Translations under genes and position numbers: made by a program
Assembly: GCA_029742005.1 (NCBI GenBank)
Contig: GCA_029742005.1_4113.1
DNA from: a phage
Strand: one strand, 5' to 3'
DNA length: 64,000 nucleotides
Shown here: in pieces, positions 197 through 12,630 of the stretch
Position numbering within the stretch: position 1 is the stretch's first letter
Layout: each line of letters begins with the position of its first letter
Notes under the pieces: generated by a model
Seen by the model: only the letters and a program-made list of their open reading frames with translations
The model's database searches: none
What the model was told of the DNA's origin: nothing

Positions 197-256
197 TTGC
201 AATTAGTTTTTAGTACTGTATAATATTTTACATCGCAAGGGGGAGCGGTTCCCCCT
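197..256 (+). promoter_or_regulatory. early promoter plus 5' stem-loop (PeSL-like)
   Basis: TTGCAA 197-202, 16-nt spacer, TATAAT 219-224; stem-loop AGGGGG/CCCCCT 238-256 just downstream. Confidence 0.65.
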
Positions 257-275
257 GGTAACTAAGGATAATCAA

Positions 276-575
276 ATGAAAATTGCAATCATCGCCCTGG
301 CTTTATCTGTTTCCTCTTTCGCTGTTAATGCGTCATTAGATGTAAGTAGTGAAAAATTCATTCAGTGCACTGTTGCAATGACCGATGAAAGTACTGGCGA
401 GATTGTTTTAAAGGATTTAGAGATCCAGCCGGAAGCATTTAAAAACGGGCCGTTCCATGAAGAAGACGAAAAAGGTAGCACGACAATTTATTACGATGCA
501 AGTACTAAACGCGGTTCGGTCACTGTTATGGATACTGAGAAAGTAACTCATACTGGCGTTATTAATTGCCGTTGA
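276..575 (+). CDS. hypothetical secreted protein (N-terminal signal peptide)
   Basis: ORF track; RBS AAGGA upstream; N-terminus MKIAIIALALSVSSFAVNA is signal-peptide like. Confidence 0.7.
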   Translation: MKIAIIALALSVSSFAVNASLDVSSEKFIQCTVAMTDESTGEIVLKDLEIQPEAFKNGPFHEEDEKGSTTIYYDASTKRGSVTVMDTEKVTHTGVINCR

Positions 576-596
576 TAGATACTACGGGGTAACATC

Positions 597-827
597 ATGA
601 CTAAGCGAATTGTTTTACTTAACGAAAGCAGTACTACACAACTACTTAACGCCGTGCATTATGATATTGAAACGAGCGTTAATCTTATCAGTACTGTCGT
701 ACTGTTGGACACTGGAAAGGTCGCCAATGATAAAGCGATTGCAGGTATACTAACGGATCTTGAGCCTGGTAGCAGTGCACCAATAACGTTAAATGGTAAA
801 GTGTTTAACATTTTACTTACTGATTAA
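597..827 (+). CDS. hypothetical protein
   Basis: ORF track; RBS GGGG upstream; followed by terminator. Confidence 0.6.
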   Translation: MTKRIVLLNESSTTQLLNAVHYDIETSVNLISTVVLLDTGKVANDKAIAGILTDLEPGSSAPITLNGKVFNILLTD

Positions 828-833
828 GTACAT

Positions 834-860
834 AGCCCACCCGGTGGGCTTTTTTGTTTT
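834..860 (+). terminator. rho-independent terminator
   Basis: AGCCCAC..GTGGGCT hairpin then T-run. Confidence 0.7.
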
Positions 861-908
861 TGTAGTATCGTAGTACTGAGATACTTTGAAAATAGTTTTA
901 AAAAATAG

Positions 909-936
909 TTGACATTACCGCAGAAAAGCGTAGAAT
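909..936 (+). promoter_or_regulatory. sigma70-like promoter
   Basis: TTGACA 909-914, 16-nt spacer, TAGAAT 931-936; about 120-nt leader before 1060. Confidence 0.55.
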
Positions 937-1059
937 GTATTACATCAAGACGGGGAGCACTAAGTAGACCGCCAGTAAGTCGAACGAAAAACTGGACACG
1001 TCGAGAAAACTTTGATACACTAATAAACGTAAACTAAACTTTAATTGAGGATTTATAAA

Positions 1060-1542
1060 ATGGCTAATGTAAAATCATTCATCAAAGCACTGGTAGCAAA
1101 TGAAACTAACGTCGCGGCAGAGATCCTGGCTGATCTGGATAACGATACCATGAAAGCGGTACGCAATAATTTTAACATCGCTTATAGTACTGCGAAAGAA
1201 CTACAAGCAAATAAAGCGGCAGAAATTGAAGCGGCAAAGGCGGCCCGTGAAGCAGAACTACAAGCAACAATTGAAAGTATCCAGGCGGCAGTAGTTGGAT
1301 TGGATCTGGAAGTAGTTACAGAGATGGCACAAAAAGCCCTGGCGGTTAAGTATGGGGAAGATAAGCCGGAATCTAAGCCTAAAAAATGGATTCAAAAACG
1401 TGTAGCGGTAGTACTGGACAACGGGGAAGAATATCTGATTCCGGTGCGTGGTAACTGCATTGCGGTAGTACTGGATGCGATTAACTCCAGTGGTATGACT
1501 CGCGAGGAATGGATCGAAGCTCATCGCAAAGTGGAAGCATAA
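1060..1542 (+). CDS. hypothetical protein (Ala/Glu-rich helical segment)
   Basis: ORF track frame; start moved to ATG 1060 behind RBS GAGGA; track ATG 1045 has no RBS. Confidence 0.7.
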   Translation: MANVKSFIKALVANETNVAAEILADLDNDTMKAVRNNFNIAYSTAKELQANKAAEIEAAKAAREAELQATIESIQAAVVGLDLEVVTEMAQKALAVKYGEDKPESKPKKWIQKRVAVVLDNGEEYLIPVRGNCIAVVLDAINSSGMTREEWIEAHRKVEA

Positions 1543-1563
1543 CAATTAAAGTACTGAATCACT

Positions 1564-1593
1564 AGCCCACCTTAAACGGTGGGCTTTTTTGTG
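1564..1593 (+). terminator. rho-independent terminator
   Basis: AGCCCACC..GGTGGGCT hairpin then T6. Confidence 0.75.
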
Positions 1594-1609
1594 TTTATCG
1601 TTTACCAGG

Positions 1610-1680
1610 CCACCAGCACCGCCTAGAAACGATTCTAACGCATTAAACTGATTATCTGATGCATTGCCCTAGCTGGTGGC
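1610..1680 (+). repeat. inverted repeat GCCACCAGC / GCTGGTGGC carrying Chi octamers on both strands
   Basis: 9-bp arms about 50 nt apart; right arm contains GCTGGTGG at 1672-1679. Confidence 0.5.
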
Positions 1681-1744
1681 GTTAAGGCTGTAAGAACGCG
1701 ATTGAGAGCGTTTAAAGTATTTTGCAAAAAGTAATAAAAAGTAC

Positions 1745-1806
1745 TTGCACGATTAAGAGATTAGCGTATAATGTTTTACATCGAGAGGGGGAAACGGTTC
1801 TCCTTC
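1745..1806 (+). promoter_or_regulatory. early promoter plus 5' stem-loop (PeSL-like)
   Basis: TTGCAC 1745-1750, TATAAT 1767-1772, GGGGGAAACGGTTCTCC hairpin. Confidence 0.6.
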
Positions 1807-1827
1807 CAAATCAAAGGAATTAAAACA

Positions 1828-2055
1828 ATGGCTATCGTAATCACTCGCGTAACTGGTACTACTGGCAATTCTTCTACTGTTGCTGTAATTACTAATAAGA
1901 AAGGTGCGGAATTGCATTTTGCAATGGATAAATGGGCCGTTAATGAGTTCGGTCAGTGGGCAAGTGTAGCATACATTGAAACCTATCAAGTGCCGTCAAT
2001 TAGTTTAACTGATTTGGGCGTTGAGCGTATCCTTTGCCTGGATGAATTAAATTAA
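1828..2055 (+). CDS. hypothetical protein
   Basis: track ORF 1771..2055 starts inside the -10 box; start moved to ATG 1828 behind RBS AAAGGA. Confidence 0.65.
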   Translation: MAIVITRVTGTTGNSSTVAVITNKKGAELHFAMDKWAVNEFGQWASVAYIETYQVPSISLTDLGVERILCLDELN

Positions 2056-2063
2056 AAAAGTAC

Positions 2064-2122
2064 TTGCAAAGTAAATCAGATAAAGTATAATACATTACAT
2101 CAAGGGGAGAAATGGTTCTCCC
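2064..2122 (+). promoter_or_regulatory. early promoter plus 5' stem-loop (PeSL-like)
   Basis: TTGCAA 2064-2069, TATAAT 2086-2091, hairpin GGGGAGAAATGGTTCTCCC. Confidence 0.6.
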
Positions 2123-2141
2123 TGATAATGAGGAAACTAAT

Positions 2142-2285
2142 ATGAAAACTTGTCAATGTGGTAAAAAATCTATTACTGGTTTAAAGCGGGGCGTTGCACT
2201 TTGCCAGTACCATTATAATTTACAAGTATGGGGTAAAGAATGGGCCGACCAGGTGGAAGCAGCAAAGAAAGCAAAAAGTAAGTAA
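2142..2285 (+). CDS. small Cys-containing protein (47 aa)
   Basis: hand-called; RBS GAGGAA; translation MKTCQCGKKS..CQYHYN; below track cutoff. Confidence 0.45.
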   Translation: MKTCQCGKKSITGLKRGVALCQYHYNLQVWGKEWADQVEAAKKAKSK

Positions 2286-2304
2286 AAATATTATCACAGT
2301 ACTA

Positions 2305-2333
2305 TTGACATAGTTTGATAGTACTGGCATAAT
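2305..2333 (+). promoter_or_regulatory. class-2 promoter (AGTACT-flanked, no stem-loop)
   Basis: TTGACA 2305-2310, 17-nt spacer, CATAAT; same architecture at 5159 and 11379. Confidence 0.55.
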
Positions 2334-2366
2334 AGATTTTATCAAGACAACTAAGAGGAAATTAAA

Positions 2367-2711
2367 ATGGCTAATATCAACACTATCGCAAAACAAAATA
2401 TCAACCTGTCTTCTGTTGAAGTTGTACATATTGCCGCTCGGCGTTGGTTCCAGGCTTCATATGGTAACACTTATTTCTCTTTAAGTGTAGACGTAGAAAT
2501 TGATGGTAATTTTATTGAAGTAGTAAACGTGCCGTTCCAATATGGATACGGGGATCACTTTGACACTGTAGCAATGGAAGAATTTAGCAAGGTTATTAAT
2601 ATGGAAGATAAGGAGTTTACACGCGGAACGTACCTTTCACGTTTTTGCCGTGATAATAATATCACTGTTTATAGTTCTGTTAGTGATGTTAAACGCAAAA
2701 AAGATCTTTAA
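2367..2711 (+). CDS. hypothetical protein (paralog of 8255..8578)
   Basis: ORF track; RBS AAGAGGA; shares GNTY..Y..VKRKKD with 8255 ORF. Confidence 0.7.
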   Translation: MANINTIAKQNINLSSVEVVHIAARRWFQASYGNTYFSLSVDVEIDGNFIEVVNVPFQYGYGDHFDTVAMEEFSKVINMEDKEFTRGTYLSRFCRDNNITVYSSVSDVKRKKDL

Positions 2712-2791
2712 TTAGCTTTACTTTATGCAGATACTTTGATATAGTGTCTGCATAGGGGAAAGAAATTAAATTAACTTAAGAGGATAGTATA

Positions 2792-3061
2792 ATGAAAAAT
2801 ATCAGTACTTTAATCGATGCAGGTACACATGTTCGGCGGTCAATGGTTGCAACCAGTACTACAAAACAAGTAGCGAGCGGTTATCTTGTATTTGTGCACG
2901 ATGGTAAACTCCTGGAACGTTCAATCAATTTTGATGTTAAAAACAATTGCCGTTTTATTATCTTTCGCCGTGAACAATATAAGATCGACATTCCAGCGAA
3001 GCCCATTAGCGGGGCGTATAACGTCTATTCATTGTTTGAGCGTCAACCATACACCTATTAA
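2792..3061 (+). CDS. hypothetical protein
   Basis: ORF track; RBS AAGAGGA. Confidence 0.6.
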   Translation: MKNISTLIDAGTHVRRSMVATSTTKQVASGYLVFVHDGKLLERSINFDVKNNCRFIIFRREQYKIDIPAKPISGAYNVYSLFERQPYTY

Positions 3062-3112
3062 TCAAAACATCGTTAGCGGTTGATTTAGGCCGCTTATATT
3101 GAGGATTATACC

Positions 3113-3385
3113 ATGAACGTTAATCAAGTACTGAATGAGATCGAAAGCATCATTAAACCGATGAAGCGTACTGATGCTATGTTAACACCGGAAGAATGCC
3201 GCCTATATGAGCGTTATAGCGTCGAACAAGTCCAGGCAATGGCTATGGCTACCCCAGCCGTTAAACCGCCTGAGAATGCGTTACAGGACGTTACAGGGGA
3301 TTATATCATCAATCCAGTACTAGGGAAGATGGCTGCAATCACCGAAGATCAACAAGACTACTTAAGCCAGTACTTAAAAGGTTAA
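3113..3385 (+). CDS. hypothetical protein
   Basis: ORF track; RBS GAGGA. Confidence 0.65.
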   Translation: MNVNQVLNEIESIIKPMKRTDAMLTPEECRLYERYSVEQVQAMAMATPAVKPPENALQDVTGDYIINPVLGKMAAITEDQQDYLSQYLKG

Positions 3386-3390
3386 TTAAT

Positions 3391-3600
3391 ATGCTTACTG
3401 TACAGGATAAGATCGACATCTTAAAGGTTAATATGTATGTGATTGATGCCGTACCTGGTAAAGTATTTGCATACGATGATAGTACTGTAAGCGATTTCTA
3501 CTATAGCCAGGACGTGGGGGATCTTTCTGTACAGTCGGTTATTGAAAACGTAGTTAATGCAGCGTATGAGCATTTACTTTCAAATAGTACTTGCAATTAG
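3391..3600 (+). CDS. hypothetical protein
   Basis: ORF track; 3' end overlaps next promoter. Confidence 0.55.
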   Translation: MLTVQDKIDILKVNMYVIDAVPGKVFAYDDSTVSDFYYSQDVGDLSVQSVIENVVNAAYEHLLSNSTCN

Positions 3601-3650
3601 TTTTTAAACGCGTATAATGTTTTACATGAAGGGGAGAAATGATTCTCCCC
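3591..3650 (+). promoter_or_regulatory. early promoter plus 5' stem-loop (PeSL-like)
   Basis: TTGCAA, TATAAT 3613-3618, hairpin GGGGAGAAATGATTCTCCCC 3631-3650. Confidence 0.6.
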
Positions 3651-3669
3651 ACTAATTAAGGAATATGAA

Positions 3670-3816
3670 ATGAAAGCATCAAAAAAGAGTAATACCAAGA
3701 AAGCATGTTCACCTTTCGCTGGGGTATTCCCTTTACGTTTCGTTGATGAAGTAGTTTCCTACCCGCCGGGCCTTACTCCTGAGATGGTAGAAAGTTTGCG
3801 TAAATCTAAAAAATAG
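3670..3816 (+). CDS. small hypothetical protein (48 aa)
   Basis: hand-called; RBS AAGGAA; below track cutoff. Confidence 0.45.
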   Translation: MKASKKSNTKKACSPFAGVFPLRFVDEVVSYPPGLTPEMVESLRKSKK

Positions 3817-3819
3817 TAC

Positions 3820-3879
3820 TTGCAATTAGTTTTTAGTACTGTATAATAGTTTACATGAAGGGGAGAAATGGTTCTCCCC
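3820..3879 (+). promoter_or_regulatory. early promoter plus 5' stem-loop (PeSL-like)
   Basis: TTGCAA 3820-3825, TATAAT 3842-3847, hairpin GGGGAGAAATGGTTCTCCCC. Confidence 0.6.
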
Positions 3880-3897
3880 AATAACAGGAGAATCAAA

Positions 3898-4050
3898 ATG
3901 AAACAATACAACGCTCGGTTTGATGTTACTATCGGTAACGGCAAAGGTCAATTCTCTTTCAGTACTCGCAAAAGTTATACAGAAAACTTCCTGCGTAATT
4001 GTGCACTGACCGCCGCACAAATTAAACATTATTTTCAGGCTAAAAAATGA
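3898..4050 (+). CDS. small hypothetical protein (50 aa)
   Basis: track ORF 3868..4050 starts inside the stem-loop; start moved to ATG 3898 behind RBS AGGAG. Confidence 0.5.
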   Translation: MKQYNARFDVTIGNGKGQFSFSTRKSYTENFLRNCALTAAQIKHYFQAKK

Positions 4051-4136
4051 AAACATTAGCTTACTATAGTTCGGCCCTGGTCGGTGCATTGATCGCGGCG
4101 TTGTTAGTAACCTATCTATTCTTTATGGTGATTTAA
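4047..4136 (+). CDS. putative small hydrophobic peptide (29 aa)
   Basis: hand-called; ATGA overlap with upstream stop; single hydrophobic helix. Confidence 0.3.
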   Translation: MKTLAYYSSALVGALIAALLVTYLFFMVI

Positions 4137-4280
4137 ATGAATCCAACAGGTTTAAACTATAAAAGTTGTTCGGCGTTTACGAAAGCAAATAAAGCGAATG
4201 CACGTAAAGCGAAAGTACAGGAATACATCAAGCAAGGCATGACGCGAAAGGCGGCGATTCTAAAAGCTAAAAATAAATGA
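4137..4280 (+). CDS. small basic protein (47 aa)
   Basis: hand-called; TAAATG overlap; Lys-rich. Confidence 0.35.
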   Translation: MNPTGLNYKSCSAFTKANKANARKAKVQEYIKQGMTRKAAILKAKNK

Positions 4281-4470
4281 AAAAAGTGGTTGACTCCGGT
4301 CAGCCATTTTGCTATTATATATTCATTGAGAGATAGCTCACTAGCCCACAGGGTGCATAAGTGTATCTATTATATAAGTATTGAGTACTGAAAACTATTT
4401 TTAAAAAGTACTTGCAAACTATCTCAATTGGCGTATAATGTTTTACATCGCAAGGGGAAACGGTTTCCCC
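4281..4470 (+). repeat. intergenic cassette copy 1: hairpin, conserved core, early promoter, 5' stem-loop
   Basis: AAAAAG-TGGTTGACTCCGGTCAGCCA-TTTT hairpin; core AGCCCACAGGGTGCATAAGTGTATC; TTGCAA 4412-4417, TATAAT 4434-4439. Confidence 0.6.
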
Positions 4471-4490
4471 TGGTAATAAGGAAACGAATC

Positions 4491-4832
4491 ATGACTATCT
4501 CAATTGCTCAATCTAACTTTGAAAACGAAATCATCGCCCAGGCACTGCGTTTAAATGATGGTCGGGCCGAAATTAATTACGGTTTCAATTCAGGCGGTTG
4601 CGAAAAATATCAGTACTTTGTAACGGCTGATGGCGGTGTCCTGGGGATCAATACAGTTATTGTAAACATTCAGAAAATTAATTTCAATGATCCAGAAGAT
4701 AGCCAGTTTTACATCACGGGTGTGAACGTGAACTATGAGGATGATTATCTAACTGATGATCACACTGGCGAGAAGTTAGAAAGTGCATACGGTGAAGATG
4801 ATTATCAGTCCGGTCCAGAAGATTTTGAATAA
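4491..4832 (+). CDS. hypothetical protein (acidic C-terminus)
   Basis: track ORF 4428..4832 starts in the promoter; start moved to ATG 4491 behind RBS AAGGAA. Confidence 0.7.
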   Translation: MTISIAQSNFENEIIAQALRLNDGRAEINYGFNSGGCEKYQYFVTADGGVLGINTVIVNIQKINFNDPEDSQFYITGVNVNYEDDYLTDDHTGEKLESAYGEDDYQSGPEDFE

Positions 4833-4846
4833 TATTAAAAAATAGT

Positions 4847-4906
4847 TTGACAATAGATTATAGTACTGTATAATAAGTTACATCAAGGGGAGAAATGATT
4901 CTCCCC
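4847..4906 (+). promoter_or_regulatory. early promoter plus 5' stem-loop (PeSL-like)
   Basis: TTGACA 4847-4852, 17-nt spacer, TATAAT 4870-4875, hairpin GGGGAGAAATGATTCTCCCC. Confidence 0.65.
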
Positions 4907-4927
4907 CACTAACAAAGAGAAAACAAA

Positions 4928-5140
4928 ATGGCTAATATCTGCACTGTACTGAAAAATGCAAAACAAGTTTTATTTTCTGATCATGAAAATTTCAACAAGG
5001 ATATTACGGGCGTTCGGAATATCAAAGATGTAAAAAGTGTTATGGGTATCTATTGCAATATGAAACGTGTTGGTACGTTCGGCGACAAAGTACTATACCA
5101 GGCAGGGGATTATAACTTTACATTAACCATTATCAATTAA
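4928..5140 (+). CDS. hypothetical protein
   Basis: ORF track; RBS AAGAGA. Confidence 0.65.
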   Translation: MANICTVLKNAKQVLFSDHENFNKDITGVRNIKDVKSVMGIYCNMKRVGTFGDKVLYQAGDYNFTLTIIN

Positions 5141-5158
5141 AATATATTACCAGTACTA

Positions 5159-5187
5159 TTGACAATGATTGATAGTACTGGCATAAT
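5159..5187 (+). promoter_or_regulatory. class-2 promoter
   Basis: AGTACTATTGACA..GATAGTACTGGCATAAT. Confidence 0.55.
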
Positions 5188-5231
5188 AACTTTTATCAAC
5201 AGTAGTTAACTTAACAAAAGAGAGAAACAAA

Positions 5232-5375
5232 ATGATCGCACTAGATTCATTCATCGACGCAGTACTGGCAAAAACTGGCGAGGATCTGACCGCAGAACAA
5301 TACGCGATGATCGAACAATGTCAGCAAAACGGTAAATCGGTGAAAGATACTGTTAAGATTATCCGCAAGATGTAA
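5232..5375 (+). CDS. small hypothetical protein (47 aa)
   Basis: hand-called; RBS AAGAGAGA; followed by terminator. Confidence 0.5.
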   Translation: MIALDSFIDAVLAKTGEDLTAEQYAMIEQCQQNGKSVKDTVKIIRKM

Positions 5376-5380
5376 GATTA

Positions 5381-5410
5381 TAGCCCACTGGTTAACGCTG
5401 GTGGGCTATA
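5381..5410 (+). terminator. terminator-like hairpin containing a Chi octamer
   Basis: TAGCCCAC..GTGGGCTA stem; GCTGGTGG at 5397-5404; weak T-tract. Confidence 0.5.
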
Positions 5411-5677
5411 ATTCATTACCCTATACAATGCCAGTACTAAACCGTTTATCTCGTTAGAATGCGTTACAGGACGTTTGACAATGATTAGCATGAAATCAGT
5501 ACAAAAACAAATAGAAACATTATCAAAAATTAAACGTAAACAATACTCCTTAGAATATAATATCAATGGTAACTATCATCTAATGAAAGAAAATAATTTT
5601 ATAGTCATTGATGAATCATTGCAAATTATTAGTATAGTACTGAAAGCATTAATCAATGACAGAAAAAAGTTAAAATA

Positions 5678-5935
5678 ATGGCTGTAGGATTCGCGAAAGA
5701 CGGGGCCGAGCAAGACGAGATTAACGCAGTGATTCAGGCCGCCGTAAACCACGCTAGAAAGCAAATTAACGCACAAATAGAATCACTGATACATTGCCGC
5801 GACTGCGGCGATATAATCCCTGAGAAACGACGCCAGGCCGTTAAGGGATGTAAGTACTGCATAACTTGCCAGGAGGATCATGATAGTACTTTTAAACGTC
5901 CCCCGCGTAATTGTTGGCATAGATCTATGAGATAA
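5678..5935 (+). CDS. TraR/DksA-like C4 zinc-finger protein (putative)
   Basis: ORF track; CxxC..CxxC pattern (CRDC..CKYC) in a basic ~85-aa protein. Confidence 0.5.
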   Translation: MAVGFAKDGAEQDEINAVIQAAVNHARKQINAQIESLIHCRDCGDIIPEKRRQAVKGCKYCITCQEDHDSTFKRPPRNCWHRSMR

Positions 5936-5941
5936 AAAGTA

Positions 5942-5999
5942 TTGACAGTACTATCCAGTAGTGTTATAGTACTTACATCAAGGGGAAACATCTTCCCCT
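5942..5999 (+). promoter_or_regulatory. early promoter plus 5' stem-loop (PeSL-like)
   Basis: TTGACA 5942-5947, TATAGT, hairpin AGGGGAAACATCTTCCCCT. Confidence 0.55.
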
Positions 6000-6016
6000 A
6001 CTAAGAGGAAATGAAA

Positions 6017-6205
6017 ATGGAAAACTTATCAAGTATTTTAGTACAAGATGATTTCGGTAATCCTGGAAGTGCTATCATTGTTCGGGGTAATAAAGCAACA
6101 TTTGTTATTGCTGGTGGACCTGTACAGCGTAGCATTAAAAACAATGCCGTTACTATTAATAATGTACGCTATCGCTTAGATAAAGAATTGATTCATAAAC
6201 TGTAA
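6017..6205 (+). CDS. hypothetical protein
   Basis: ORF track frame; second ATG 6017 better spaced from RBS AAGAGGA. Confidence 0.6.
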   Translation: MENLSSILVQDDFGNPGSAIIVRGNKATFVIAGGPVQRSIKNNAVTINNVRYRLDKELIHKL

Positions 6206-6562: not shown

Positions 6563-6622
6563 TTGACAATGTAATCTAGTACTGTATAATAAGTTACATG
6601 AAGGGGAGAAATGATTCTCCCC
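6563..6622 (+). promoter_or_regulatory. early promoter plus 5' stem-loop (PeSL-like)
   Basis: TTGACA, TATAAT 6585-6590, hairpin GGGGAGAAATGATTCTCCCC. Confidence 0.65.
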
Positions 6623-6639: not shown

Positions 6640-6852
6640 ATGCAAGGTCAACTAATCGTTCGTAAATGGTCTGATACTAACGAAAAACCGTGGGATGTAC
6701 AATACATCGGACCGGACGGTGTTTCACGTTATCAACCTGGCGTAACGCATAGTACTGAGCAATATGCCGCCGCTCACCGCGAACGCCTGTTAGAATCCAT
6801 GAAACAGGGATTCTGTGAAAAATTCATTCAAGATCATTGGCTGAAAGATTAA
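6640..6852 (+). CDS. hypothetical protein
   Basis: ORF track; RBS GAGAGGAAAG. Confidence 0.65.
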   Translation: MQGQLIVRKWSDTNEKPWDVQYIGPDGVSRYQPGVTHSTEQYAAAHRERLLESMKQGFCEKFIQDHWLKD

Positions 6853-6869
6853 TATAAGGAGTACAGCTT

Positions 6870-6962
6870 ATGCAAATGAATCCGATGATTATTGTTTTAG
6901 CTGTACTTATGATCATTCATGCAATTGTAGAAGTATTAACGCAATCAGGAGTAATAAAATGA
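6870..6962 (+). CDS. putative small membrane peptide (30 aa)
   Basis: hand-called; RBS TAAGGAG; hydrophobic. Confidence 0.4.
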   Translation: MQMNPMIIVLAVLMIIHAIVEVLTQSGVIK

Positions 6963-7132
6963 TTCAAGTAGAATTATCAGTACTGAAAGATCTGTTTTAT
7001 CGGATTGGTACTACTGGCGAATATCCGAAGGGTGATAATGCAAAACTTTACGTATCACTCGACTTATGGCAACGCGAACAATTAGCAACAGCGTGGCGTA
7101 AAGGTAAAGCAGATCGCGAGGTGAAAGCATGA
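6959..7132 (+). CDS. small hypothetical protein (57 aa)
   Basis: hand-called; ATGA start/stop overlap. Confidence 0.45.
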   Translation: MIQVELSVLKDLFYRIGTTGEYPKGDNAKLYVSLDLWQREQLATAWRKGKADREVKA

Positions 7133-7278
7133 AAGAATTCTTATTCGAAGTAGTGTTCCAGGGCGTAGGAAGTAACCAACTGATTCGATCAAGTGGTTAC
7201 AATGTTAACCAGGCATGGAATAACATTAAACAAATGTACCCGAACGCTATCACCTATCGCAACCCAAAACAAGTTTAA
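7129..7278 (+). CDS. small hypothetical protein (49 aa)
   Basis: hand-called; ATGA overlap. Confidence 0.4.
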   Translation: MKEFLFEVVFQGVGSNQLIRSSGYNVNQAWNNIKQMYPNAITYRNPKQV

Positions 7279-7494
7279 AAAGAATTGAAAAAGGGATTGA
7301 CTCCGGTCAGTCCCTTTGCTATTATATATTCATTGAAACAATCTAGCCCACAGGGTGCATAAATGTATCTATTGTTTGCTGGTGGCTAGTACTATCAAGT
7401 ACTGAAAACTATTTTTAAAAAGTACTTGCAAAGTATCACGATAAGCGTATAATGTTTTACATCAGGACGGGGAACGAAACAAGTAACTCCCCGT
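7279..7494 (+). repeat. intergenic cassette copy 2
   Basis: GGGATTGACTCCGGTCAGTCCC hairpin, conserved core, Chi GCTGGTGG 7378-7385, TTGCAA/TATAAT 7447-7452, stem-loop ACGGGGA..TCCCCGT. Confidence 0.6.
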
Positions 7495-7543
7495 TAAGTA
7501 GTCCAGGAGTAAGACATACGAAAACCTCCCCTGATAAAATAGT

Positions 7544-7571
7544 TTGACAATAGAAATTAAACGAGTATAAT
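7544..7571 (+). promoter_or_regulatory. sigma70-like promoter
   Basis: TTGACA 7544-7549, 16-nt spacer, TATAAT 7566-7571. Confidence 0.6.
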
Positions 7572-7601
7572 ACTTACATCAACCACAAAGAGGAATACAA
7601 A

Positions 7602-7802
7602 ATGAAACATTTTACTTTCGGTGTAGTAGGCTTTACAGTATCCAGCGGCGTTTATAAATCAGAACGCGGTGCTAAAAATGCAGCAAGTCGGGCGTATGGT
7701 TCACAGCGTGACTTACAGGTCGGTTATATTAGTAACATTAATAACATGTTTATTCCTGTTTCACAGCGTAAAGCGGGTAACATGAAATGGGAAACAATTT
7801 GA
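7602..7802 (+). CDS. hypothetical protein
   Basis: ORF track; RBS AAGAGGAA. Confidence 0.65.
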   Translation: MKHFTFGVVGFTVSSGVYKSERGAKNAASRAYGSQRDLQVGYISNINNMFIPVSQRKAGNMKWETI

Positions 7803-7811
7803 TAAAATAGT

Positions 7812-7870
7812 TTGACAATAGTTTTTAGTACTGTATAATAGTTTACATCAAGTGGGGAATAGTTCCCCAC
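7812..7870 (+). promoter_or_regulatory. early promoter plus 5' stem-loop (PeSL-like)
   Basis: TTGACA 7812-7817, TATAAT, hairpin GTGGGGAATAGTTCCCCAC. Confidence 0.65.
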
Positions 7871-7891
7871 CTAACAAAGAGAGAAATTAAA

Positions 7892-8167
7892 ATGCGGATT
7901 CTACTGACAGCTAACGAAATCGAGCAAGTACTGACTACTAACCTGGAAGACTGGAAACGTGATGCAGATATCCAGGCGGTTCAATGCCTTAACGATAAGT
8001 TAACGCCAGATGACTTAAGCACGATTGTTGATCCACAATTTTATGAAGATATTCACGACATGGATTTAAGCGTAGAGGATGTACTTGATAAGCACTACAT
8101 TGATACTGATTTACAGGTTTACGGTCGTAAAAACTTTATCACTATTCACGACATTTACAATACTTAA
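7892..8167 (+). CDS. hypothetical protein (acidic)
   Basis: ORF track; RBS AAGAGAGA. Confidence 0.7.
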   Translation: MRILLTANEIEQVLTTNLEDWKRDADIQAVQCLNDKLTPDDLSTIVDPQFYEDIHDMDLSVEDVLDKHYIDTDLQVYGRKNFITIHDIYNT

Positions 8168-8170
8168 GTA

Positions 8171-8231
8171 TTGACAAAGTATCTTAGTACTGTATAATAG
8201 TTTACATCAAGTGAGGGGAATGGTTCCCCTC
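8171..8231 (+). promoter_or_regulatory. early promoter plus 5' stem-loop (PeSL-like)
   Basis: TTGACA 8171-8176, TATAAT 8193-8198, hairpin GAGGGGAATGGTTCCCCTC. Confidence 0.65.
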
Positions 8232-8254
8232 CTAACAAAAAGAGAGAAATTAAA

Positions 8255-8578
8255 ATGGCTATGATCCTTACCCAGAAAGTAGAAATGAAAATTGTAACTT
8301 CCTTTGACATTAAAGTTAATCGGTGGACTGATAGCCACGGCAATACTTACCACTCATGCTACGTGTCTGCATTGATTGGTGACCGCTGGGAAGACCTGGG
8401 ACATGAAACCTTTACTTACGGTTACGGTACACAAGGCGAATACACGGGCTTGGAGATCATTAAAGAAACTGTAATAGGTTTCAACCCGAAAGAGAAAGTA
8501 CTACACAGAATTGAGGATGAGATCAACAAAGAAATTACAGTTCGTTACTACGATGTAAAACGTAAGAAAGACATGTAA
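8255..8578 (+). CDS. hypothetical protein (paralog of 2367..2711)
   Basis: ORF track; shared GNTY..YGYG..VKRKKD signature. Confidence 0.7.
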   Translation: MAMILTQKVEMKIVTSFDIKVNRWTDSHGNTYHSCYVSALIGDRWEDLGHETFTYGYGTQGEYTGLEIIKETVIGFNPKEKVLHRIEDEINKEITVRYYDVKRKKDM

Positions 8579-8600
8579 TAGAATCCATTTAAAGTACTAT

Positions 8601-8629
8601 TTGACATTACCCAGATAGTACTTTATAAT
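8601..8629 (+). promoter_or_regulatory. sigma70-like promoter
   Basis: TTGACA 8601-8606, 17-nt spacer, TATAAT 8624-8629. Confidence 0.6.
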
Positions 8630-8677
8630 AGACTCTAACTTGTAGTACTAATTAACTTAACTAATAGGATGTACACC

Positions 8678-9073
8678 ATGATTACTAAATTCTTCGCTAC
8701 CCGTGAACAAGCTCGCATCGTTGCCCGTGAAGAAGGTGAAACATTTAAAGACATGGGCAAAGATGCACCGAAAGGACAACGCTGGGCGGTACAGTTCAAA
8801 GAGATCTCTGATATTGTGAATTCACCTGAACCAGTACTTACTGAAGCAGAACTAAAGCAAGCTCAAGAACTGGCTGAAGTACTGAACGCTCAAGATGACT
8901 TCTTGGAAGGTTCTGATATTCAAGTACAAGTGAATAGTAATGCATGGACTCACGCGGATCACCTGGCAAACCTTAAGCGTCCAAGTGAACTGATTCGTAA
9001 CCAGAAAGAGATCCGTCATGACCGTAAAGGAAACCGTGTAACAGTATACAGTAAACGCCGCCAGGTTATCTAA
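8678..9073 (+). CDS. hypothetical protein
   Basis: track frame 8669..9073; ATG 8678 better spaced from RBS AGGAT. Confidence 0.7.
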   Translation: MITKFFATREQARIVAREEGETFKDMGKDAPKGQRWAVQFKEISDIVNSPEPVLTEAELKQAQELAEVLNAQDDFLEGSDIQVQVNSNAWTHADHLANLKRPSELIRNQKEIRHDRKGNRVTVYSKRRQVI

Positions 9074-9095
9074 TAACTTGCAGTACTAACAACAC

Positions 9096-9122
9096 GGCGG
9101 GTTCAGTTCCCGCCTTTTTTAT
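9096..9122 (+). terminator. rho-independent terminator
   Basis: GGCGGG-TTCAGTT-CCCGCC then T6. Confidence 0.75.
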
Positions 9123-9135
9123 AGGATAAACTAAA

Positions 9136-9390
9136 ATGATGAAGGTACAACTATCTAAAGATAATATCTTGCGGGTACACTATAAAGCACCACAGAGAAT
9201 CATCACAAAGGCCGTACAGCTTGCTAATGAGTTTATTAATGGTAGTCTATTACCCAGGAAGTTAAGCAACGGAAAACTACGTGTTATCGATGTAGACACT
9301 AACAATAGAATAGTAATTGAGAGTACTGGAAAAATTAATCTATATGAACACCAACAATACAATAAAAAAATAAAACTAATATCACGTTGA
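9136..9390 (+). CDS. hypothetical protein
   Basis: ORF track; RBS AGGA; AT-rich. Confidence 0.45.
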   Translation: MMKVQLSKDNILRVHYKAPQRIITKAVQLANEFINGSLLPRKLSNGKLRVIDVDTNNRIVIESTGKINLYEHQQYNKKIKLISR

Positions 9391-9415
9391 CAGTACTCAA
9401 TTGTTTTAGTATTAT
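9387..9415 (+). promoter_or_regulatory. sigma70-like promoter (duplicated at 9666)
   Basis: TTGACAGTACTCAATTGTTTTAGTATTAT. Confidence 0.55.
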
Positions 9416-9446
9416 GTATCTATACCAACACAGAGAGAGAAACAAA

Positions 9447-9665
9447 ATGAAATTATCTAAAATCGAAAAGAAAACTATTGATGAAGCAGTGAAGCACGGT
9501 TATACCTTTCGTAATGATTCACATTTTACCAATTTTCAACAAGGGTATCGTACTATTAAAAAACTAATTGACAAAGGTTTATTAGTTGAAGTCAATAACG
9601 GCAATGGCATTGAGTATCAACCAACACAAGACGCATTATCACTAAAGAAATATTCTATTATCTAA
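9447..9665 (+). CDS. hypothetical protein
   Basis: track ORF 9387..9665 starts at the -35 box; start moved to ATG 9447. Confidence 0.6.
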   Translation: MKLSKIEKKTIDEAVKHGYTFRNDSHFTNFQQGYRTIKKLIDKGLLVEVNNGNGIEYQPTQDALSLKKYSII

Positions 9666-9694
9666 TTGACAGTACTCAAATGTTTTAGTACTAT
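9666..9694 (+). promoter_or_regulatory. sigma70-like promoter (near-identical copy of 9387)
   Basis: TTGACAGTACTCAAATGTTTTAGTACTAT. Confidence 0.55.
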
Positions 9695-9722
9695 GTACGC
9701 ATACCAACACGGGGAAAACAAA

Positions 9723-9950
9723 ATGATTACTTTAGAAAAACGTATCAAAGAGACTACAACGCTGGTGGAACTGTTAACCGTTCTTAAATGCCGGGTAACT
9801 CCATTCAGTACACCGGACTTTATCAACATGGTGGACGTTAACGGTCGATATCGTATTGCGGTCGAACAAGGTACGGCAAAAGTATTCAGTACTAAAAATA
9901 CGCGTGAAGTATTCCACGCAGTTCAAGTAAAAAAAAGTAGTTGCCATTGA
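9723..9950 (+). CDS. hypothetical protein
   Basis: track ORF 9666..9950 starts at the -35 box; start moved to ATG 9723. Confidence 0.6.
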   Translation: MITLEKRIKETTTLVELLTVLKCRVTPFSTPDFINMVDVNGRYRIAVEQGTAKVFSTKNTREVFHAVQVKKSSCH

Positions 9951-9997
9951 TAGTAAAGTACTGTAATATAGTTTCATTAACTCAAGGAGTCAACACA

Positions 9998-10582
9998 ATG
10001 CGTAACTATACTAAATTCATCCGTTCACTTCATGCAATGGAAACCAACAAAGAGATCCTTTCAGCTTGTCGGTTAGCTGGACTGGAGATCGTCGGTGCGG
10101 GTTCTTCCCGTATTGTATTCGCTTTAAATGATCGGTTAGTGATTAAGGTCGCGAATTGTGATGCGGGTGTAGAACAAAATGAAACTGAATGTAAGGTATG
10201 GAATTTTTTAGATTATGACCGTCCGCACCTTAAACAGTTCTTTGCCAAGGTGCATATGCATTTATGCGATCCTGATAATCTGTTTATTGTTATGGATCGT
10301 TTGAGTACTGCAAGCAAAGGCAGTGTAAAGCATGTAAACGCGTGCAATGAGTTAAAGTACAATATTAAACGTAATACGGTAGAACGCCAACACCATTTCG
10401 CTGATGCTCTCAATCACGTTGATGATACATTATCCACACTAACGATAAGAGATATCAGAAAACAGAATATCGGCCAGGATCGCAACGGCTTGATTAAAGT
10501 ACTTGATTACGGTTTAACCCGCAATATCTGGAATCAGTACTATAAAAAACGTGATGTTAACGCGATAACTATAACACGATAA
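9998..10582 (+). CDS. putative protein kinase (eukaryotic-like kinase fold)
   Basis: VIKV (VAIK-like), IRDIRKQNIG (HRD-loop-like), DYG (DFG-like) in order; start moved to ATG 9998 behind RBS AAGGAG. Confidence 0.6.
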   Translation: MRNYTKFIRSLHAMETNKEILSACRLAGLEIVGAGSSRIVFALNDRLVIKVANCDAGVEQNETECKVWNFLDYDRPHLKQFFAKVHMHLCDPDNLFIVMDRLSTASKGSVKHVNACNELKYNIKRNTVERQHHFADALNHVDDTLSTLTIRDIRKQNIGQDRNGLIKVLDYGLTRNIWNQYYKKRDVNAITITR

Positions 10583-10784
10583 AAAAGATTAAAAAAGGGA
10601 TTGACTCCAGTCAGTCCCTTTGCTATTATATATTCATTGAGAGATAACTCACTGACCCATAGGGTGCGGAAGTGTATCTATTATATAAGTATTCAGTACT
10701 GAAAACTATTTGATAAAAAGTACTTGCAAACTATCTCAAAGAGCGTATAATGTTTTATATCGAGAGGGGGAAATGGTTTCCCCT
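10581..10784 (+). repeat. intergenic cassette copy 3
   Basis: GGGATTGACTCCAGTCAGTCCC hairpin, conserved core, TTGCAA 10724-10729, TATAAT 10746-10751, stem-loop GAGGGGGAAATGGTTTCCCCTC. Confidence 0.6.
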
Positions 10785-10803
10785 CAAGTCCAGGAGATAC
10801 ACC

Positions 10804-11067
10804 ATGAACACTATCGAAATCACTATCAATGCACACGTATACGACAACGTAGTACTGCAAACTACTATGACCGCTAACGATACCAGTACTTTGCGGAATA
10901 CTGTTATTAGTGCTGTATGTGCCGCTATCGGTGATGTCGCCCTGGAAAATGCAAAACACGTAAACGATGGTTTCACTATGTGCAAACGTGATAACGCAAA
11001 ACATATCATCGTAGAAGGTTACGGCGGTGTAGAATATAATGTTTATATGAAAAAAGTACTTGCATAG
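10804..11067 (+). CDS. hypothetical protein
   Basis: track ORF 10750..11067 starts in the -10 box; start moved to ATG 10804 behind RBS CAGGAGA. Confidence 0.65.
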   Translation: MNTIEITINAHVYDNVVLQTTMTANDTSTLRNTVISAVCAAIGDVALENAKHVNDGFTMCKRDNAKHIIVEGYGGVEYNVYMKKVLA

Positions 11068-11115
11068 TACTGAATAAAGCGTATAATGTTTTGCATAGGG
11101 GGAGATATCCTCCCC
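11060..11115 (+). promoter_or_regulatory. early promoter plus 5' stem-loop (PeSL-like)
   Basis: TTGCAT, TATAAT 11082-11087, hairpin GGGGGAGATATCCTCCCCC. Confidence 0.6.
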
Positions 11116-11134
11116 CACTAAAAGGAGTATTAAA

Positions 11135-11359
11135 ATGGCTAACTTTGATGAACTGATGCGGGAAGTAGCTAACCTGGCAGAAGAGAAGAAATCATTCGAT
11201 TCTATCTATAACACCGCTCACCGTGATTCAGTACTGGCATGTAACCAGGATCAAAAAGATGAACTAATCGCCACATATCATGAAGCATGGAAGTACTACC
11301 GACAATGGGAGAAAGAAGAAAGCGAGTCTACCATCGAAGGTATCAATAATCTAATCTAA
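11135..11359 (+). CDS. hypothetical protein
   Basis: ORF track; RBS AAAGGAG. Confidence 0.7.
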   Translation: MANFDELMREVANLAEEKKSFDSIYNTAHRDSVLACNQDQKDELIATYHEAWKYYRQWEKEESESTIEGINNLI

Positions 11360-11378
11360 AAGTTTTATTTCAGTACTA

Positions 11379-11407
11379 TTGACATAGCTTGATAGTACTG
11401 ATATGAT
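11379..11407 (+). promoter_or_regulatory. class-2 promoter
   Basis: AGTACTATTGACA..GATAGTACTGATATGAT. Confidence 0.5.
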
Positions 11408-11434
11408 AACTTTACTAACTAAAGGGGAAACATA

Positions 11435-11692
11435 ATGGAACAGTTCACACAATATCGGGTAAATCCTCAAGCGATGGCCTACGTAGAAGACCATAAAACG
11501 TTACCAGTACTGCAACCAGTTAAAGGCCATATCTATCGTGCAATGTCGTGGAGTGCGGCCCAGGATGGATATAAAACCGTCGCCGTGGGGATGTATTGCG
11601 GGAATGGTGAATGGTTTGATCCTAACAATCCGATTGCACTTGACAGTACTGAAAAAATGAAATGGGCCGACTACATCGAAGATATTTCATAA
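11435..11692 (+). CDS. hypothetical protein
   Basis: ORF track; RBS AAAGGGGAA. Confidence 0.7.
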   Translation: MEQFTQYRVNPQAMAYVEDHKTLPVLQPVKGHIYRAMSWSAAQDGYKTVAVGMYCGNGEWFDPNNPIALDSTEKMKWADYIEDIS

Positions 11693-11698
11693 AAACTA

Positions 11699-11760
11699 TT
11701 TGACAGTACTAACCAGTAATGTATAATGTTTTACATAGAGCGGGGGAATAGTTCTCCCGC
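11699..11760 (+). promoter_or_regulatory. early promoter plus 5' stem-loop (PeSL-like)
   Basis: TTGACA 11699-11704, 17-nt spacer, TATAAT, hairpin GCGGGGGAATAGTTCTCCCGC. Confidence 0.65.
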
Positions 11761-11782
11761 CAATAGTTTGGAGTAAAACATT

Positions 11783-11983
11783 ATGTCTATCGCTATCGCC
11801 CTGGTTGAAGTACTGAAAGAAGCTAAAGCCAACCTTATCGATGTACAGATTAAGGAATTGCAAAACGGCTTAATCGGCTGTACTTGTACCGCTGGTGGAG
11901 CGGCAGACTATCGAGAACACGAATCACTCGAATCACTGGTTCGGTATCTTACCATGATCGTTGATGATTGGAGAATCATCTAA
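11783..11983 (+). CDS. hypothetical protein
   Basis: ORF track; RBS GGAG. Confidence 0.65.
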   Translation: MSIAIALVEVLKEAKANLIDVQIKELQNGLIGCTCTAGGAADYREHESLESLVRYLTMIVDDWRII

Positions 11984-12208
11984 CAAAAAAGAATAAAAAA
12001 GGGATTGACTCCGGTCAGTCCCTTTGCTATTATATACGCATAGACAAAAACTAGCCCACTGGGTGCATAAGTGTATCCAAAATATATAGTTAATAACGGT
12101 GAGTAACTATCTGCTGGTGGAGTGAAAACTATTAATAAAAAAAGTATTGACAAAGTATATCAGTACTGCGATAATGTATCTCGTAGGGCGGCAATGGTGC
12201 GACGGCCC
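11984..12208 (+). repeat. intergenic cassette copy 4 (most diverged)
   Basis: GGGATTGACTCCGGTCAGTCCC hairpin, core GCCCACTGGGTGCATAAGTGTATC, Chi 12113-12120, TTGACA/GATAAT promoter, GC-rich stem-loop. Confidence 0.55.
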
Positions 12209-12228
12209 ACAAAGTTAGGAGATTCAAA

Positions 12229-12561
12229 ATGACTACTTCAATCGCTATCGTTAAAGCTTTCATCCGTACTAATGTTTCCTCTGTATTCATCGACGGCCTC
12301 GACCGTAACGTAGAATACTCAATCATTATCGCACAAACGGCAAACGGTTCTCGGTACATCCTGAATGATAGTGAAGCAAATCACTACTACTTCACTAAAG
12401 CCACTGGCTTTAAACGCATCGATGCTGATGTAGTATACGCTAAGATGAATAAGCTGGTAGATAAGATTAACGCTAAAGGTACTATAGATTTACAGTACTG
12501 GACCGAAACCGATCCAGAATATGGATCTCACCGCTACCTGAATCCAGGTATTAAAATGTAA
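12229..12561 (+). CDS. hypothetical protein
   Basis: ORF track; RBS TAGGAGA. Confidence 0.7.
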   Translation: MTTSIAIVKAFIRTNVSSVFIDGLDRNVEYSIIIAQTANGSRYILNDSEANHYYFTKATGFKRIDADVVYAKMNKLVDKINAKGTIDLQYWTETDPEYGSHRYLNPGIKM

Positions 12562-12568
12562 AAAGTAC

Positions 12569-12630
12569 TTGCATAGTACTTAGATTCATGTATAATGTTT
12601 TACATAGAGAGGGGGAAATGGTTCTCCCTC
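12569..12630 (+). promoter_or_regulatory. early promoter plus 5' stem-loop (PeSL-like)
   Basis: TTGCAT 12569-12574, TATAAT 12591-12596, hairpin GAGGGGGAAATGGTTCTCCCTC. Confidence 0.6.

Follow-up and report, generated by a model that had tools for sequence, protein, structure and literature searches.

From the analysis of a 64,000-nucleotide stretch of phage DNA (contig GCA_029742005.1_4113.1 of assembly GCA_029742005.1; referred to as the window and numbered from its first letter), the region between positions 197 and 12630 is recognized to carry many copies of a cassette that couples a σ70-like promoter to a short G-run/C-run hairpin and a ribosome-binding site. The repetition of promoter plus hairpin in this putative early region is real and lies far above chance. 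We understand the hairpin, tentatively and with slightly less than even confidence, as a sequence-independent structure of the 5′ leader that stabilizes and insulates early mRNAs, within a cassette that also constitutes a site of recombination. Overall, the cassette represents a new form of a known element type, and not a promoter-early stem-loop (PeSL) in the strict sense. By sequence identity (90–95% over the first 12 kb to the Escherichia coli jumbo myoviruses 121Q, PBECO4, phAPEC6 and G17), the phage is assigned to Asteriusvirus and not to the T4-type phages. Coverage is mosaic, with 4–14 aligned pieces per genome among the matches listed. The same region in the relatives consists of a one-strand series of small hypothetical genes; according to the annotations of those records that include genome ends, it lies within a long direct terminal repeat, and the cassette copy number there is about doubled. 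The GC content drops from 38.6% to 32.4% at the end of the region, at about 13.4–16 kb.

Sequence reading combined with scans of the first 12.7 kb located 30 σ70-like promoter sites between 197 and 12600, all of them on the + strand, on which 7 perfect (12/12) matches to the σ70 consensus and 26 matches of at least 10/12 were counted. A pattern restricted to the promoter and the initial transcribed motif (TTGMMA-N16-TATAAT-NN-TTTACAT, up to 2 mismatches, no hairpin term) gave 16 matches, again exclusively on the + strand (197–12605), as compared to 0.03 expected from shuffles. A hairpin of 7–9 bp with at least 4 G-C pairs follows 14 of these 16 matches and, with an additional copy at 5942, 15 canonical cassettes are obtained; the chance of such a hairpin, determined from shuffles, is 0.0033 per site (binomial P = 2e-33). 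The order of elements is TTGACA/TTGCAA, 16 nt, TATAAT, nnTTTACAT, the G-run/C-run hairpin, 17–23 nt that include a Shine-Dalgarno (SD) sequence, and ATG, while a AAAAAGTAC tract is placed 5′ of the −35 box in an A/T-rich upstream region. The 15 hairpins start 10–14 nt past the −10 box (mode 12), end 17–23 nt ahead of the ATG and have folding energies (ΔG) of −10.6 to −16 kcal/mol. An A-rich linker connects hairpin and SD sequence, and both the SD sequence and the AUG are unpaired in the minimum-energy folds of the canonical leaders. A repeat search recovers the cassette as 13 dispersed direct copies of 74 nt that are 61–88% identical. With a covariance model built from the 15 copies, no further cassette was found in the window past 12.7 kb; 145 of the 146 model matches in the window and seven related loci are on the + strand and 1 is on the − strand. 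The canonical cassettes and the related sites of the window are as follows (z, single-sequence folding z-score).

197..256, + strand: cassette 1, TTGCAA-N16-TATAAT (−10 ends at 224), hairpin 238–256 AGGGGGAG-cgg-TTCCCCCT, ΔG −14.1, ATG 276.
1745..1806, + strand: cassette 2, TTGCAC-N16-TATAAT, hairpin 1785–1806 GAGGGGGAA-acgg-TTCTCCTTC with two G·U pairs, ATG 1828.
2064..2123, + strand: cassette 3, TTGCAA-N16-TATAAT, hairpin 2104–2123 GGGGAGAA-atgg-TTCTCCCT, ATG 2142.
3591..3650, + strand: cassette 4, TTGCAA-N16-TATAAT, hairpin 3631–3650 GGGGAGAA-atga-TTCTCCCC, z −2.6, ATG 3670.
3820..3879, + strand: cassette 5, TTGCAA-N16-TATAAT, hairpin 3860–3879 GGGGAGAA-atgg-TTCTCCCC, ATG 3898.
4412..4471, + strand: cassette 6, TTGCAA-N16-TATAAT, hairpin 4453–4471 AGGGGAAA-cgg-TTTCCCCT, ATG 4491.
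4847..4906, + strand: cassette 7, TTGACA-N16-TATAAT, hairpin 4887–4906 GGGGAGAA-atga-TTCTCCCC, z −3.4, ATG 4928.
5942..5999, + strand: cassette 8, TTGACA with N16-TTATAG or N17-TATAGT, hairpin 5981–5999 AGGGGAA-acatc-TTCCCCT, ATG 6017.
6563..6622, + strand: cassette 9, TTGACA-N16-TATAAT, hairpin 6603–6622 GGGGAGAA-atga-TTCTCCCC, ATG 6640.
7812..7870, + strand: cassette 10, TTGACA-N16-TATAAT, hairpin 7852–7870 GTGGGGAA-tag-TTCCCCAC, z −3.2, ATG 7892.
8171..8231, + strand: cassette 11, TTGACA-N16-TATAAT, hairpin 8213–8231 GAGGGGAA-tgg-TTCCCCTC, ATG 8255.
10724..10785, + strand: cassette 12, TTGCAA-N16-TATAAT, hairpin 10764–10785 GAGGGGGAA-atgg-TTTCCCCTC, ATG 10804.
11060..11116, + strand: cassette 13, TTGCAT-N16-TATAAT, hairpin 11098–11116 GGGGGAG-atatc-CTCCCCC, ATG 11135.
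11700..11760, + strand: cassette 14, TTGACA-N16-TATAAT, hairpin 11740–11760 GCGGGGGAA-tag-TTCTCCCGC, z −3.1, ATG 11783.
12569..12630, + strand: cassette 15, TTGCAT-N16-TATAAT, hairpin 12609–12630 GAGGGGGAA-atgg-TTCTCCCTC, ATG 12651.
909..1060, + strand: variant, TTGACA-N16-TAGAAT and ACATCAAGACGGGGAGC, leader of about 115 nt without canonical hairpin, z +0.8, ATG 1061.
7426..7543, + strand: variant, cassette-type promoter with ACATC start, then a closed structure of 83 nt at 7461–7543.
12147..12228, + strand: doubtful member, TTGACA-N17-GATAAT, weak imperfect hairpin (GGGC...GCCC), z −0.1.

The original prediction, made from the letters of the window, had counted at least 17 genes with this arrangement, a number that is about right when the variant sites at 909, 7426 and 12147 are included with the 15 canonical cassettes. 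The stems GGGGAGA/TCTCCCC, GTGGGGA/TCCCCAC and GAGGGGA/TCCCCTC named in it are present; the fourth, given as GCGGGGG/CCCCCGC, is actually GCGGGGGAA/TTCTCCCGC and includes one G·U pair.

Structure, rather than sequence, is the conserved property of the leader hairpin. Covariation was analyzed for 84 distinct copies collected from the window, phAPEC6, WPEC3, G17, an rV5-like phage, Serratia phage BF, Salmonella phage 7t3 and RaK2. Standard pairs make up 93% of the cells of this set, and all 8 of the 8 modelled pairs have changed on both sides. Cells with a double change number 63, as compared to 13.3 ± 6.9 in shuffles (none of 500 shuffles reached as many) and to 0–12 in a slid control in which the 3′ partner was moved by 1–3 columns. 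A tally made per sequence, independent of any alignment, gave 55 distinct combinations of stem and loop. Across 109 copies from all loci, the hairpin starts 10–14 nt past the −10 box (mode 12), and the stems of RaK2 (GGGGATACA-tag-TGTATCCCT, GGGAATGAA-tga-TTCATTCCC) and of Serratia BF (GGGTAAGC-aatacc-GCTTACCC, GACAGGAGA-tag-TCTCTTGTC) occupy the same position after a promoter with a 16-nt spacer. Orthologous cassettes of close relatives differ in their stems by C-to-T changes that leave G·U pairs, and their loops differ freely, with atga, tag and aaac found, for example, on one gene. Because a plain MAFFT alignment of the 15 copies placed 8-bp and 9-bp stems out of register, it was used only as seed of the covariance model. 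The claim that the stem varies while pairing is kept is thus borne out, with double changes far above both the shuffled and the slid controls. Rfam models searched against positions 1–14000 gave no match to a cassette, just two unrelated matches at chance level (E 0.3–0.4).

The evidence on strand asymmetry points to selection acting on the pairing of the sense RNA. In a tally of internal stem positions that allowed any isolated mismatch, the non-Watson-Crick cases on the sense strand comprise 25 G·T and 3 T·G, as compared to 4 A·C and 4 C·A (P = 0.001), and several of the A·C/C·A cases stem from spurious hairpins. The sense fold is more stable than that of the complement in 33 of 52 variants and weaker in 2, in a comparison partly biased by the detection of the hairpins on the sense strand. 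Given the excess of G·U on the sense strand and the strict orientation, the selected structure is the mRNA leader and not the DNA. The original prediction, in stating that the structure is selected, had left the choice between an RNA 5′ end and DNA, and it is the former that the data prefer. A structure working as DNA, be it a cruciform, a single-stranded hairpin for replication, recombination or packaging, or a hairpin promoter of the N4 type, is considered highly improbable. Inverted repeats fold in either nucleic acid, to be sure, and the cassettes lie within the long terminal repeat of related genomes; but G·T far outnumbers A·C, the complementary strand folds worse, the orientation is that of transcription in all but one of the model matches, and the position is tied to the σ70 promoter and the ribosome-binding site. 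The N4-type DNA hairpin promoter and the cruciform were rejected on the strand bias.

Transcription from σ70 promoters usually starts 7–8 nt past the −10 box, at a purine that follows a pyrimidine. The cassettes have a conserved ACAT 6–9 nt past TATAAT, and the A of its CAT, 8 nt past TATAAT, is the most likely start as modelled from these preferences. In predicted folds, the start so placed leaves 0–5 unpaired nt 5′ of the stem. In the mechanism we propose, each cassette would be a self-contained early expression unit, in which a strong promoter for the host σ70 enzyme, having a 16-bp spacer and an A-rich upstream region, would direct transcription from the A of ACAT. The hairpin would act in cis through its structure, not its sequence, and it would hamper decay dependent on the 5′ end by interfering with the access or scanning of RppH and RNase E, in the manner of the leader hairpins of ompA, papA and T7 gene 10. 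It would also sequester the G-rich initial transcript, with the consequence that the ribosome-binding site would stay open whatever open reading frame (ORF) follows. The cassettes (∼75 nt), being dispersed direct repeats, would in addition serve homologous exchange, through which small early genes could be added, removed or provided with another cassette.

Several observations weigh against this leader-hairpin mechanism. The position of the hairpin at the 5′ terminus is a predicted one, and start-site data for Asteriusvirus, PBECO4 or 121Q were not found in the searchable literature. If transcription starts where predicted, 5 nt stay unpaired at the 5′ end in 9 of the 15 canonical leaders, an overhang at or beyond the limit for blocking the 5′ sensor of RNase E and RppH. 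The same gene is found behind a hairpin-less promoter in some relatives (modules 1745 and 7812), hence the hairpin is non-essential for any given gene. Some loops, UAG and ACAAC, are found in several genera on differing stems, and the loop could therefore be recognized by something. The alignment derived from the covariance model favours structure and contains register errors at 9-bp stems, for which reason the alignment-free counts per sequence were added; the apparent A·C cells in columns 20/65 of the model alignment are artefacts of misregister. Finally, the z-scores of single-sequence folding are modest (−0.8 to −3.4); shuffled sequences having a G-run and a C-run refold easily, and the case for the structure thus rests on position, recurrence and covariation.

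A co-transcriptional role of the hairpin would make use of the same initial transcript. Purines always predominate in the 5′ arm, which is SD-like (GGGGAGAA, GAGGGGGAA); the 3′ arm is rich in pyrimidines. Promoter escape is favoured by an initial transcribed sequence that is rich in purines, T5 N25 being an example. The 5′ arm might thus aid escape, and the 3′ arm might fold the G-rich RNA away on its emergence, preventing R-loops, backtracking or the spurious binding of ribosomes to the SD-like GGAG/GGGG arm. Fixed spacing from the −10 box and the coupling of the hairpin to a single promoter class would fit such a role. It is, however, purely inferential, the stems of RaK2 and BF (GGGAATGAA, GGGTAAGC) are far less G-rich past the first three G, and the idea overlaps the leader-hairpin explanation more than it excludes it; as a separate explanation we regard it as decidedly unlikely.

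The promoter class to which the hairpin is coupled is defined by its spacer. The 16–17 nt spacer originally given holds as 16 nt in the hairpin class, while the 12 promoters having 17 nt are all without a canonical hairpin. Among the 18 promoters of the window with a 16-nt spacer, 15 are followed by a canonical hairpin and 2 by a long variant; the contrast of 15/18 to 0/12 for the canonical hairpin is significant (Fisher P = 1e-5). Across all loci, the association of spacer class and hairpin has an odds ratio of 28, to be read with the caution that some 17-nt matches outside early regions are chance occurrences. The leaders of the hairpin-less promoters are unstructured in predicted folds. Two repeat families are found among these 17-nt-spacer promoters, both with unstructured leaders: one at 2285–2345, 5139–5199 and 11359–11419 (TATTGACA..GATAGTACTGGCATAAT) and another at 9365–9455 and 9644–9734 (TTGACAGTACTCAA..TTTTAGTA(T/C)TATGTA).

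Restriction of the hairpin to one promoter class could also be understood if the hairpin were a handle for an RNA-binding factor of phage or host; this factor might antiterminate in the way of λ N at boxB, repress translation, or act as a shut-off nuclease for early genes. The 16-bp-spacer promoters would then form a dedicated early regulon, timed, silenced or anti-terminated by a factor that recognizes the leader hairpin and controlled separately from the hairpin-less 17-bp-spacer class, and the cassette would be portable between unrelated phage families (Asteriusvirus, Alcyoneusvirus, Eneladusvirus, 7t3-like phages, Vequintavirinae). The upper stem and loop in Asteriusvirus resemble GAA-(A)NRG-UUC, the recurrence of UAG and ACAAC loops on different stems in different genera would be accommodated, and such phages encode their own σ factor and other transcription regulators, as known from published genome papers. 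Yet the loops (3–6 nt) vary in length and sequence within a genome and among orthologous cassettes, the stems are wholly different between genera, a gene can lose its hairpin and gain no other in its place, and no candidate binding protein was identified. We therefore consider the handle, and with it the regulon, an unlikely explanation. A boxB-like site in particular was rejected on the variation of the 3–6-nt loops between orthologous cassettes, the boxA motif not having been searched formally. A site for RNase III, which in the early type of T7 requires ∼20 bp or more of double-stranded RNA, was likewise rejected, the stems being too short (almost all 7–10 bp, one of 12 bp).

The suggested use of the cassettes as recombination modules is in good agreement with the comparison of relatives. 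When the first 13.4 kb is aligned colinearly with phAPEC6, WPEC3 and G17, 25 of 39 internal breakpoints fall into cassette intervals, defined as −20 to +80 around each −35 box and covering 22.6% of the region (P = 4e-8, with breakpoints not independent between relatives and an intergenic placement expected anyway). More telling is that, at 5159 and 10724, neighbouring alignment blocks both extend over one and the same cassette; at these junctions the relative is longer by 227 bp or 785 bp, which lie between two copies. Genes whose starts are identical (60/60) carry differing hairpins in relatives; for module 10724 (cassette 12), the window shows GAGGGGGAA-atgg, phAPEC6 CGGGGGAA-tag and G17 GCGGGGGAA-tag. 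Breakpoints, shared-cassette junctions and swapped hairpins together indicate that the cassettes are points of exchange, as proposed for PeSLs, and the view that the cassette doubles as a recombination module is supported at the level of sequence comparison.

Given these findings, one may ask if the stem-loop does what is ascribed to it in the PeSLs, namely to act as terminator or attenuator of upstream transcription, with the PeSLs, in hyperplastic regions, mediating both indels and mini-circles (Arbiol et al. 2010, PMC2839356; Comeau et al. 2014, PMC4122927). The stem-loop would then terminate or attenuate transcription arriving from upstream cassettes, and the cassette would be kept mainly for the shuffling of ORFans. 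The G-run/C-run hairpin with G·T pairs is of the PeSL kind, and the dispersed 74-nt direct repeats amid small ORFs, the clustering of synteny breakpoints, the overlapping junctions and the cassette swaps on identical genes would all be expected. The stem-loop of PeSL211/210, a related one, strongly reduced lacZ expression (Arbiol et al., PMC2839356), and the PeSL stem-loops of the Phi1 region inspected are likewise without a clear U-tract. Here, however, the hairpin is situated downstream of the predicted start of its own promoter, where an efficient terminator would abort the cassette's own transcript. In 106 of 109 hairpins there are just 0–3 T within the next 8 nt, a terminator scan of the + strand listed no cassette hairpin, and the same region contains canonical terminators at 834, 1564 and 9096 as well as four terminator-like 12-bp palindromes. 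The intrinsic terminator was thus rejected, on the missing U-tract and the result of the scan. Moreover, recombination driven by DNA homology needs no selection on the pairing of a sense RNA, and a recombination role is compatible with, and indeed part of, the leader-hairpin explanation. Phi1 itself, from which the definition of the PeSL comes, has three consecutive PeSLs with stem-loops of the GGGGGTA/TACTCCC or GGGAGTA/TACTCCC type across the −10 box, followed by CCCATCGAAACG; these stem-loops, spanning the −10 box, precede the start site, whereas the hairpin here follows the predicted one, and the covariance model of the cassette gave no credible match in the Phi1 PeSL region. The stem-loop is therefore rather improbable as a terminator or attenuator in the PeSL sense.

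A second repeat family (4270–4407, 7277–7369, 10581–10718, 11985–12077) comes nearer to the classic PeSL geometry. In it, a 12-bp terminator-like palindrome (AAAGGGATTGACTCCGGTCAGTCCCTTT) overlaps the −35 box of a TTGACT-N17-TATTAT promoter, which is followed by ∼25 variable nt, the invariant CCCAYAGGGTGC and then GTATCTAT. The family counts 32 distinct copies, spread over Asteriusvirus, RaK2, Serratia BF and Salmonella 7t3. The consensus fold of the CCCAYAGGGTGC element shows an invariant 4-bp hairpin only, with no covariation and no Rfam match; the family may represent a conserved small RNA or a protein-binding site. Another structured element is the 7426 variant of the cassette, where the 5′ AUCAGG of the 7461–7543 structure pairs with a 3′ CCUGAU (ΔG −20.3, z −2.45; 28 bits). 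No ORF is present between its promoter and the next promoter at 7544, and the element (7426–7543) is kept in phAPEC6, WPEC3, G17 and the rV5-like phage A73. It is a candidate small RNA.

Regarding natural distribution, a query with a single cassette returned 10–30 copies per Asteriusvirus genome. Weaker copies were found in rV5-like phages (83% identity, promoter and hairpin), Eneladusvirus, the Salmonella 7t3/Munch group, Klebsiella phage Muenster and RaK2/K64-1, and the same architecture with other stems exists in RaK2, Serratia BF, Salmonella 7t3 and rV5-like phages. When IMG/VR was scanned with the promoter motif, the outcome was for the most part single matches due to chance; real cassettes were confined to 121Q itself and the two uncultivated viral contigs L009 and L011, each with several copies. 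The genome papers on CBB, rV5, CB7, RaK2, Sharanji and PA5oct describe σ70-like early promoters at most, and the coupled hairpin is unmentioned in them. The product of the gene behind cassette 15 (12651–13052, and L008:6915-7375; 133 aa) is common to Asteriusvirus, rV5-like phages, Eneladusvirus, RaK2 and the T4-like Krischvirus, its homologue in Phi1 being ORF225 (38% identity), and in each lineage the gene stands behind that lineage's own type of promoter/stem-loop cassette.

Two further features of the region deserve mention. AGTACT is the commonest hexamer of the 64 kb, with 223 occurrences as compared to 21 expected from base composition, 86 of them in 1–13.4 kb; GTAC occurs 557 times as compared to 196 expected. 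AGTACT is found in promoter spacers (e.g., 203–223, TTAGTTTTTAGTACTGTATAAT), overlapping the −35 box (e.g., 192–197) and frequently in genes too, and the excess could reflect a binding site, a modification site or the converse of restriction avoidance. Past the cassettes, within the low-GC zone (13400–16000), a tandem array starts at 13562–14798 with at least 6 paralogous ORFs of 65–72 aa that have ATGA stop/start overlaps and the common motif G-T/A-x-Y/F-Q-E/K-x-Y; cassettes are absent there.

Should the leader-hairpin explanation be correct, the cassette would be a compact natural unit of promoter, insulating hairpin and ribosome-binding site, able to serve any small gene and used by several families of large enterobacterial phages. 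It would offer test systems for the survival of immediate-early messages during host mRNA degradation and for the insertion of new genes into early regions, as well as ready parts for synthetic biology. A practical use exists in genome annotation. Many of the hairpin loops are AUGG or AUGA, and in the phAPEC6 counterpart of window positions 2112–2285 the annotated start (L001:15745) is the AUG within the hairpin loop; a loop AUG (ATGG/ATGA) thus stands as a gene start in the annotation of a relative. The true start is more likely the ATG at 2142, which is in frame and has GAGGAA upstream, than the loop AUG at 2112.

Lastly, the cassette has clear analogies in known systems. Stem-loops at the 5′ terminus stabilize E. 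coli mRNAs against RNase E (PMC3997798, citing Emory 1992, Bouvet 1992, Arnold 1998 and Bricker 1999), and the ompA and papA leaders (Emory, Bouvet and Belasco 1992, cited in PMC3997798) resemble the leaders considered here in that a stable hairpin of small size lies at the 5′ end or close to it, a position that is predicted in the present case. In both, it is the structure that matters rather than the sequence, and the downstream ribosome-binding site is free. Unlike ompA and papA, which are single cellular genes with mapped 5′ ends, the cassette is a repeated, mobile, promoter-coupled unit with a predicted start, and its predicted overhang of 0–5 nt may be too long for full protection.

A phage leader of similar appearance is that of T7 gene 10 (φ10; GGGAGACCACAACGGUUUCCC), in which a G-rich arm pairs with an arm of the UUUCCC type ahead of a strong ribosome-binding site, and which is reported to add stability. 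Cassette 6 (AGGGGAAACGGUUUCCCCU) resembles it; transcription in T7 relies on the phage's own RNA polymerase and on late promoters, and the likeness is probably convergent. In λ, boxB has a conserved loop read by N and is accompanied by boxA, and put of HK022 is a two-hairpin RNA of ∼70 nt. These sites share with the cassette an RNA hairpin encoded just 3′ of early promoters, but differ from it in that the loops here vary between orthologues and each gene has its own copy.

The closest parallel is with the PeSLs of the T4-type phages RB49/Phi1, PST/T4 and nt-1/KVP40, which consist of a σ70-like promoter, an A/T-rich upstream region, a G-run/C-run stem-loop, an SD sequence and ATG (PMC2839356, PMC4122927). 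The cassette has all these parts, the stem-loop again being stable and containing G·T; it shares with the PeSLs the many dispersed copies beside small ORFs without known function, within an early region that is hyperplastic, and the breakpoints of indels and replacements that coincide with the element. The PeSL stem-loop takes five positions, mostly in the interval from the −35 box to the −10 box or over the −10 box and, in PST, just upstream of the promoter; the placements described also include an overlap with one or the other box, an upstream site, and one immediately ahead of the start (PMC2839356, PMC4122927). In contrast, the hairpin here is always 10–14 nt past the −10 box, within the predicted transcript, without U-tract and coupled to a 16-bp spacer, and its carriers are Asteriusvirus and other jumbo and rV5-like phages instead of Straboviridae. 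The match with T4-type PeSLs that the original prediction had drawn is therefore not supported in that form, considering that the phage belongs to Asteriusvirus, that the hairpin lies downstream of the −10 box and not across it, and that the cassette model misses the Phi1 PeSLs. The cassette is analogous to a PeSL, not a member of the PeSL family, and its stem-loop probably does another job than the one in the PeSLs.

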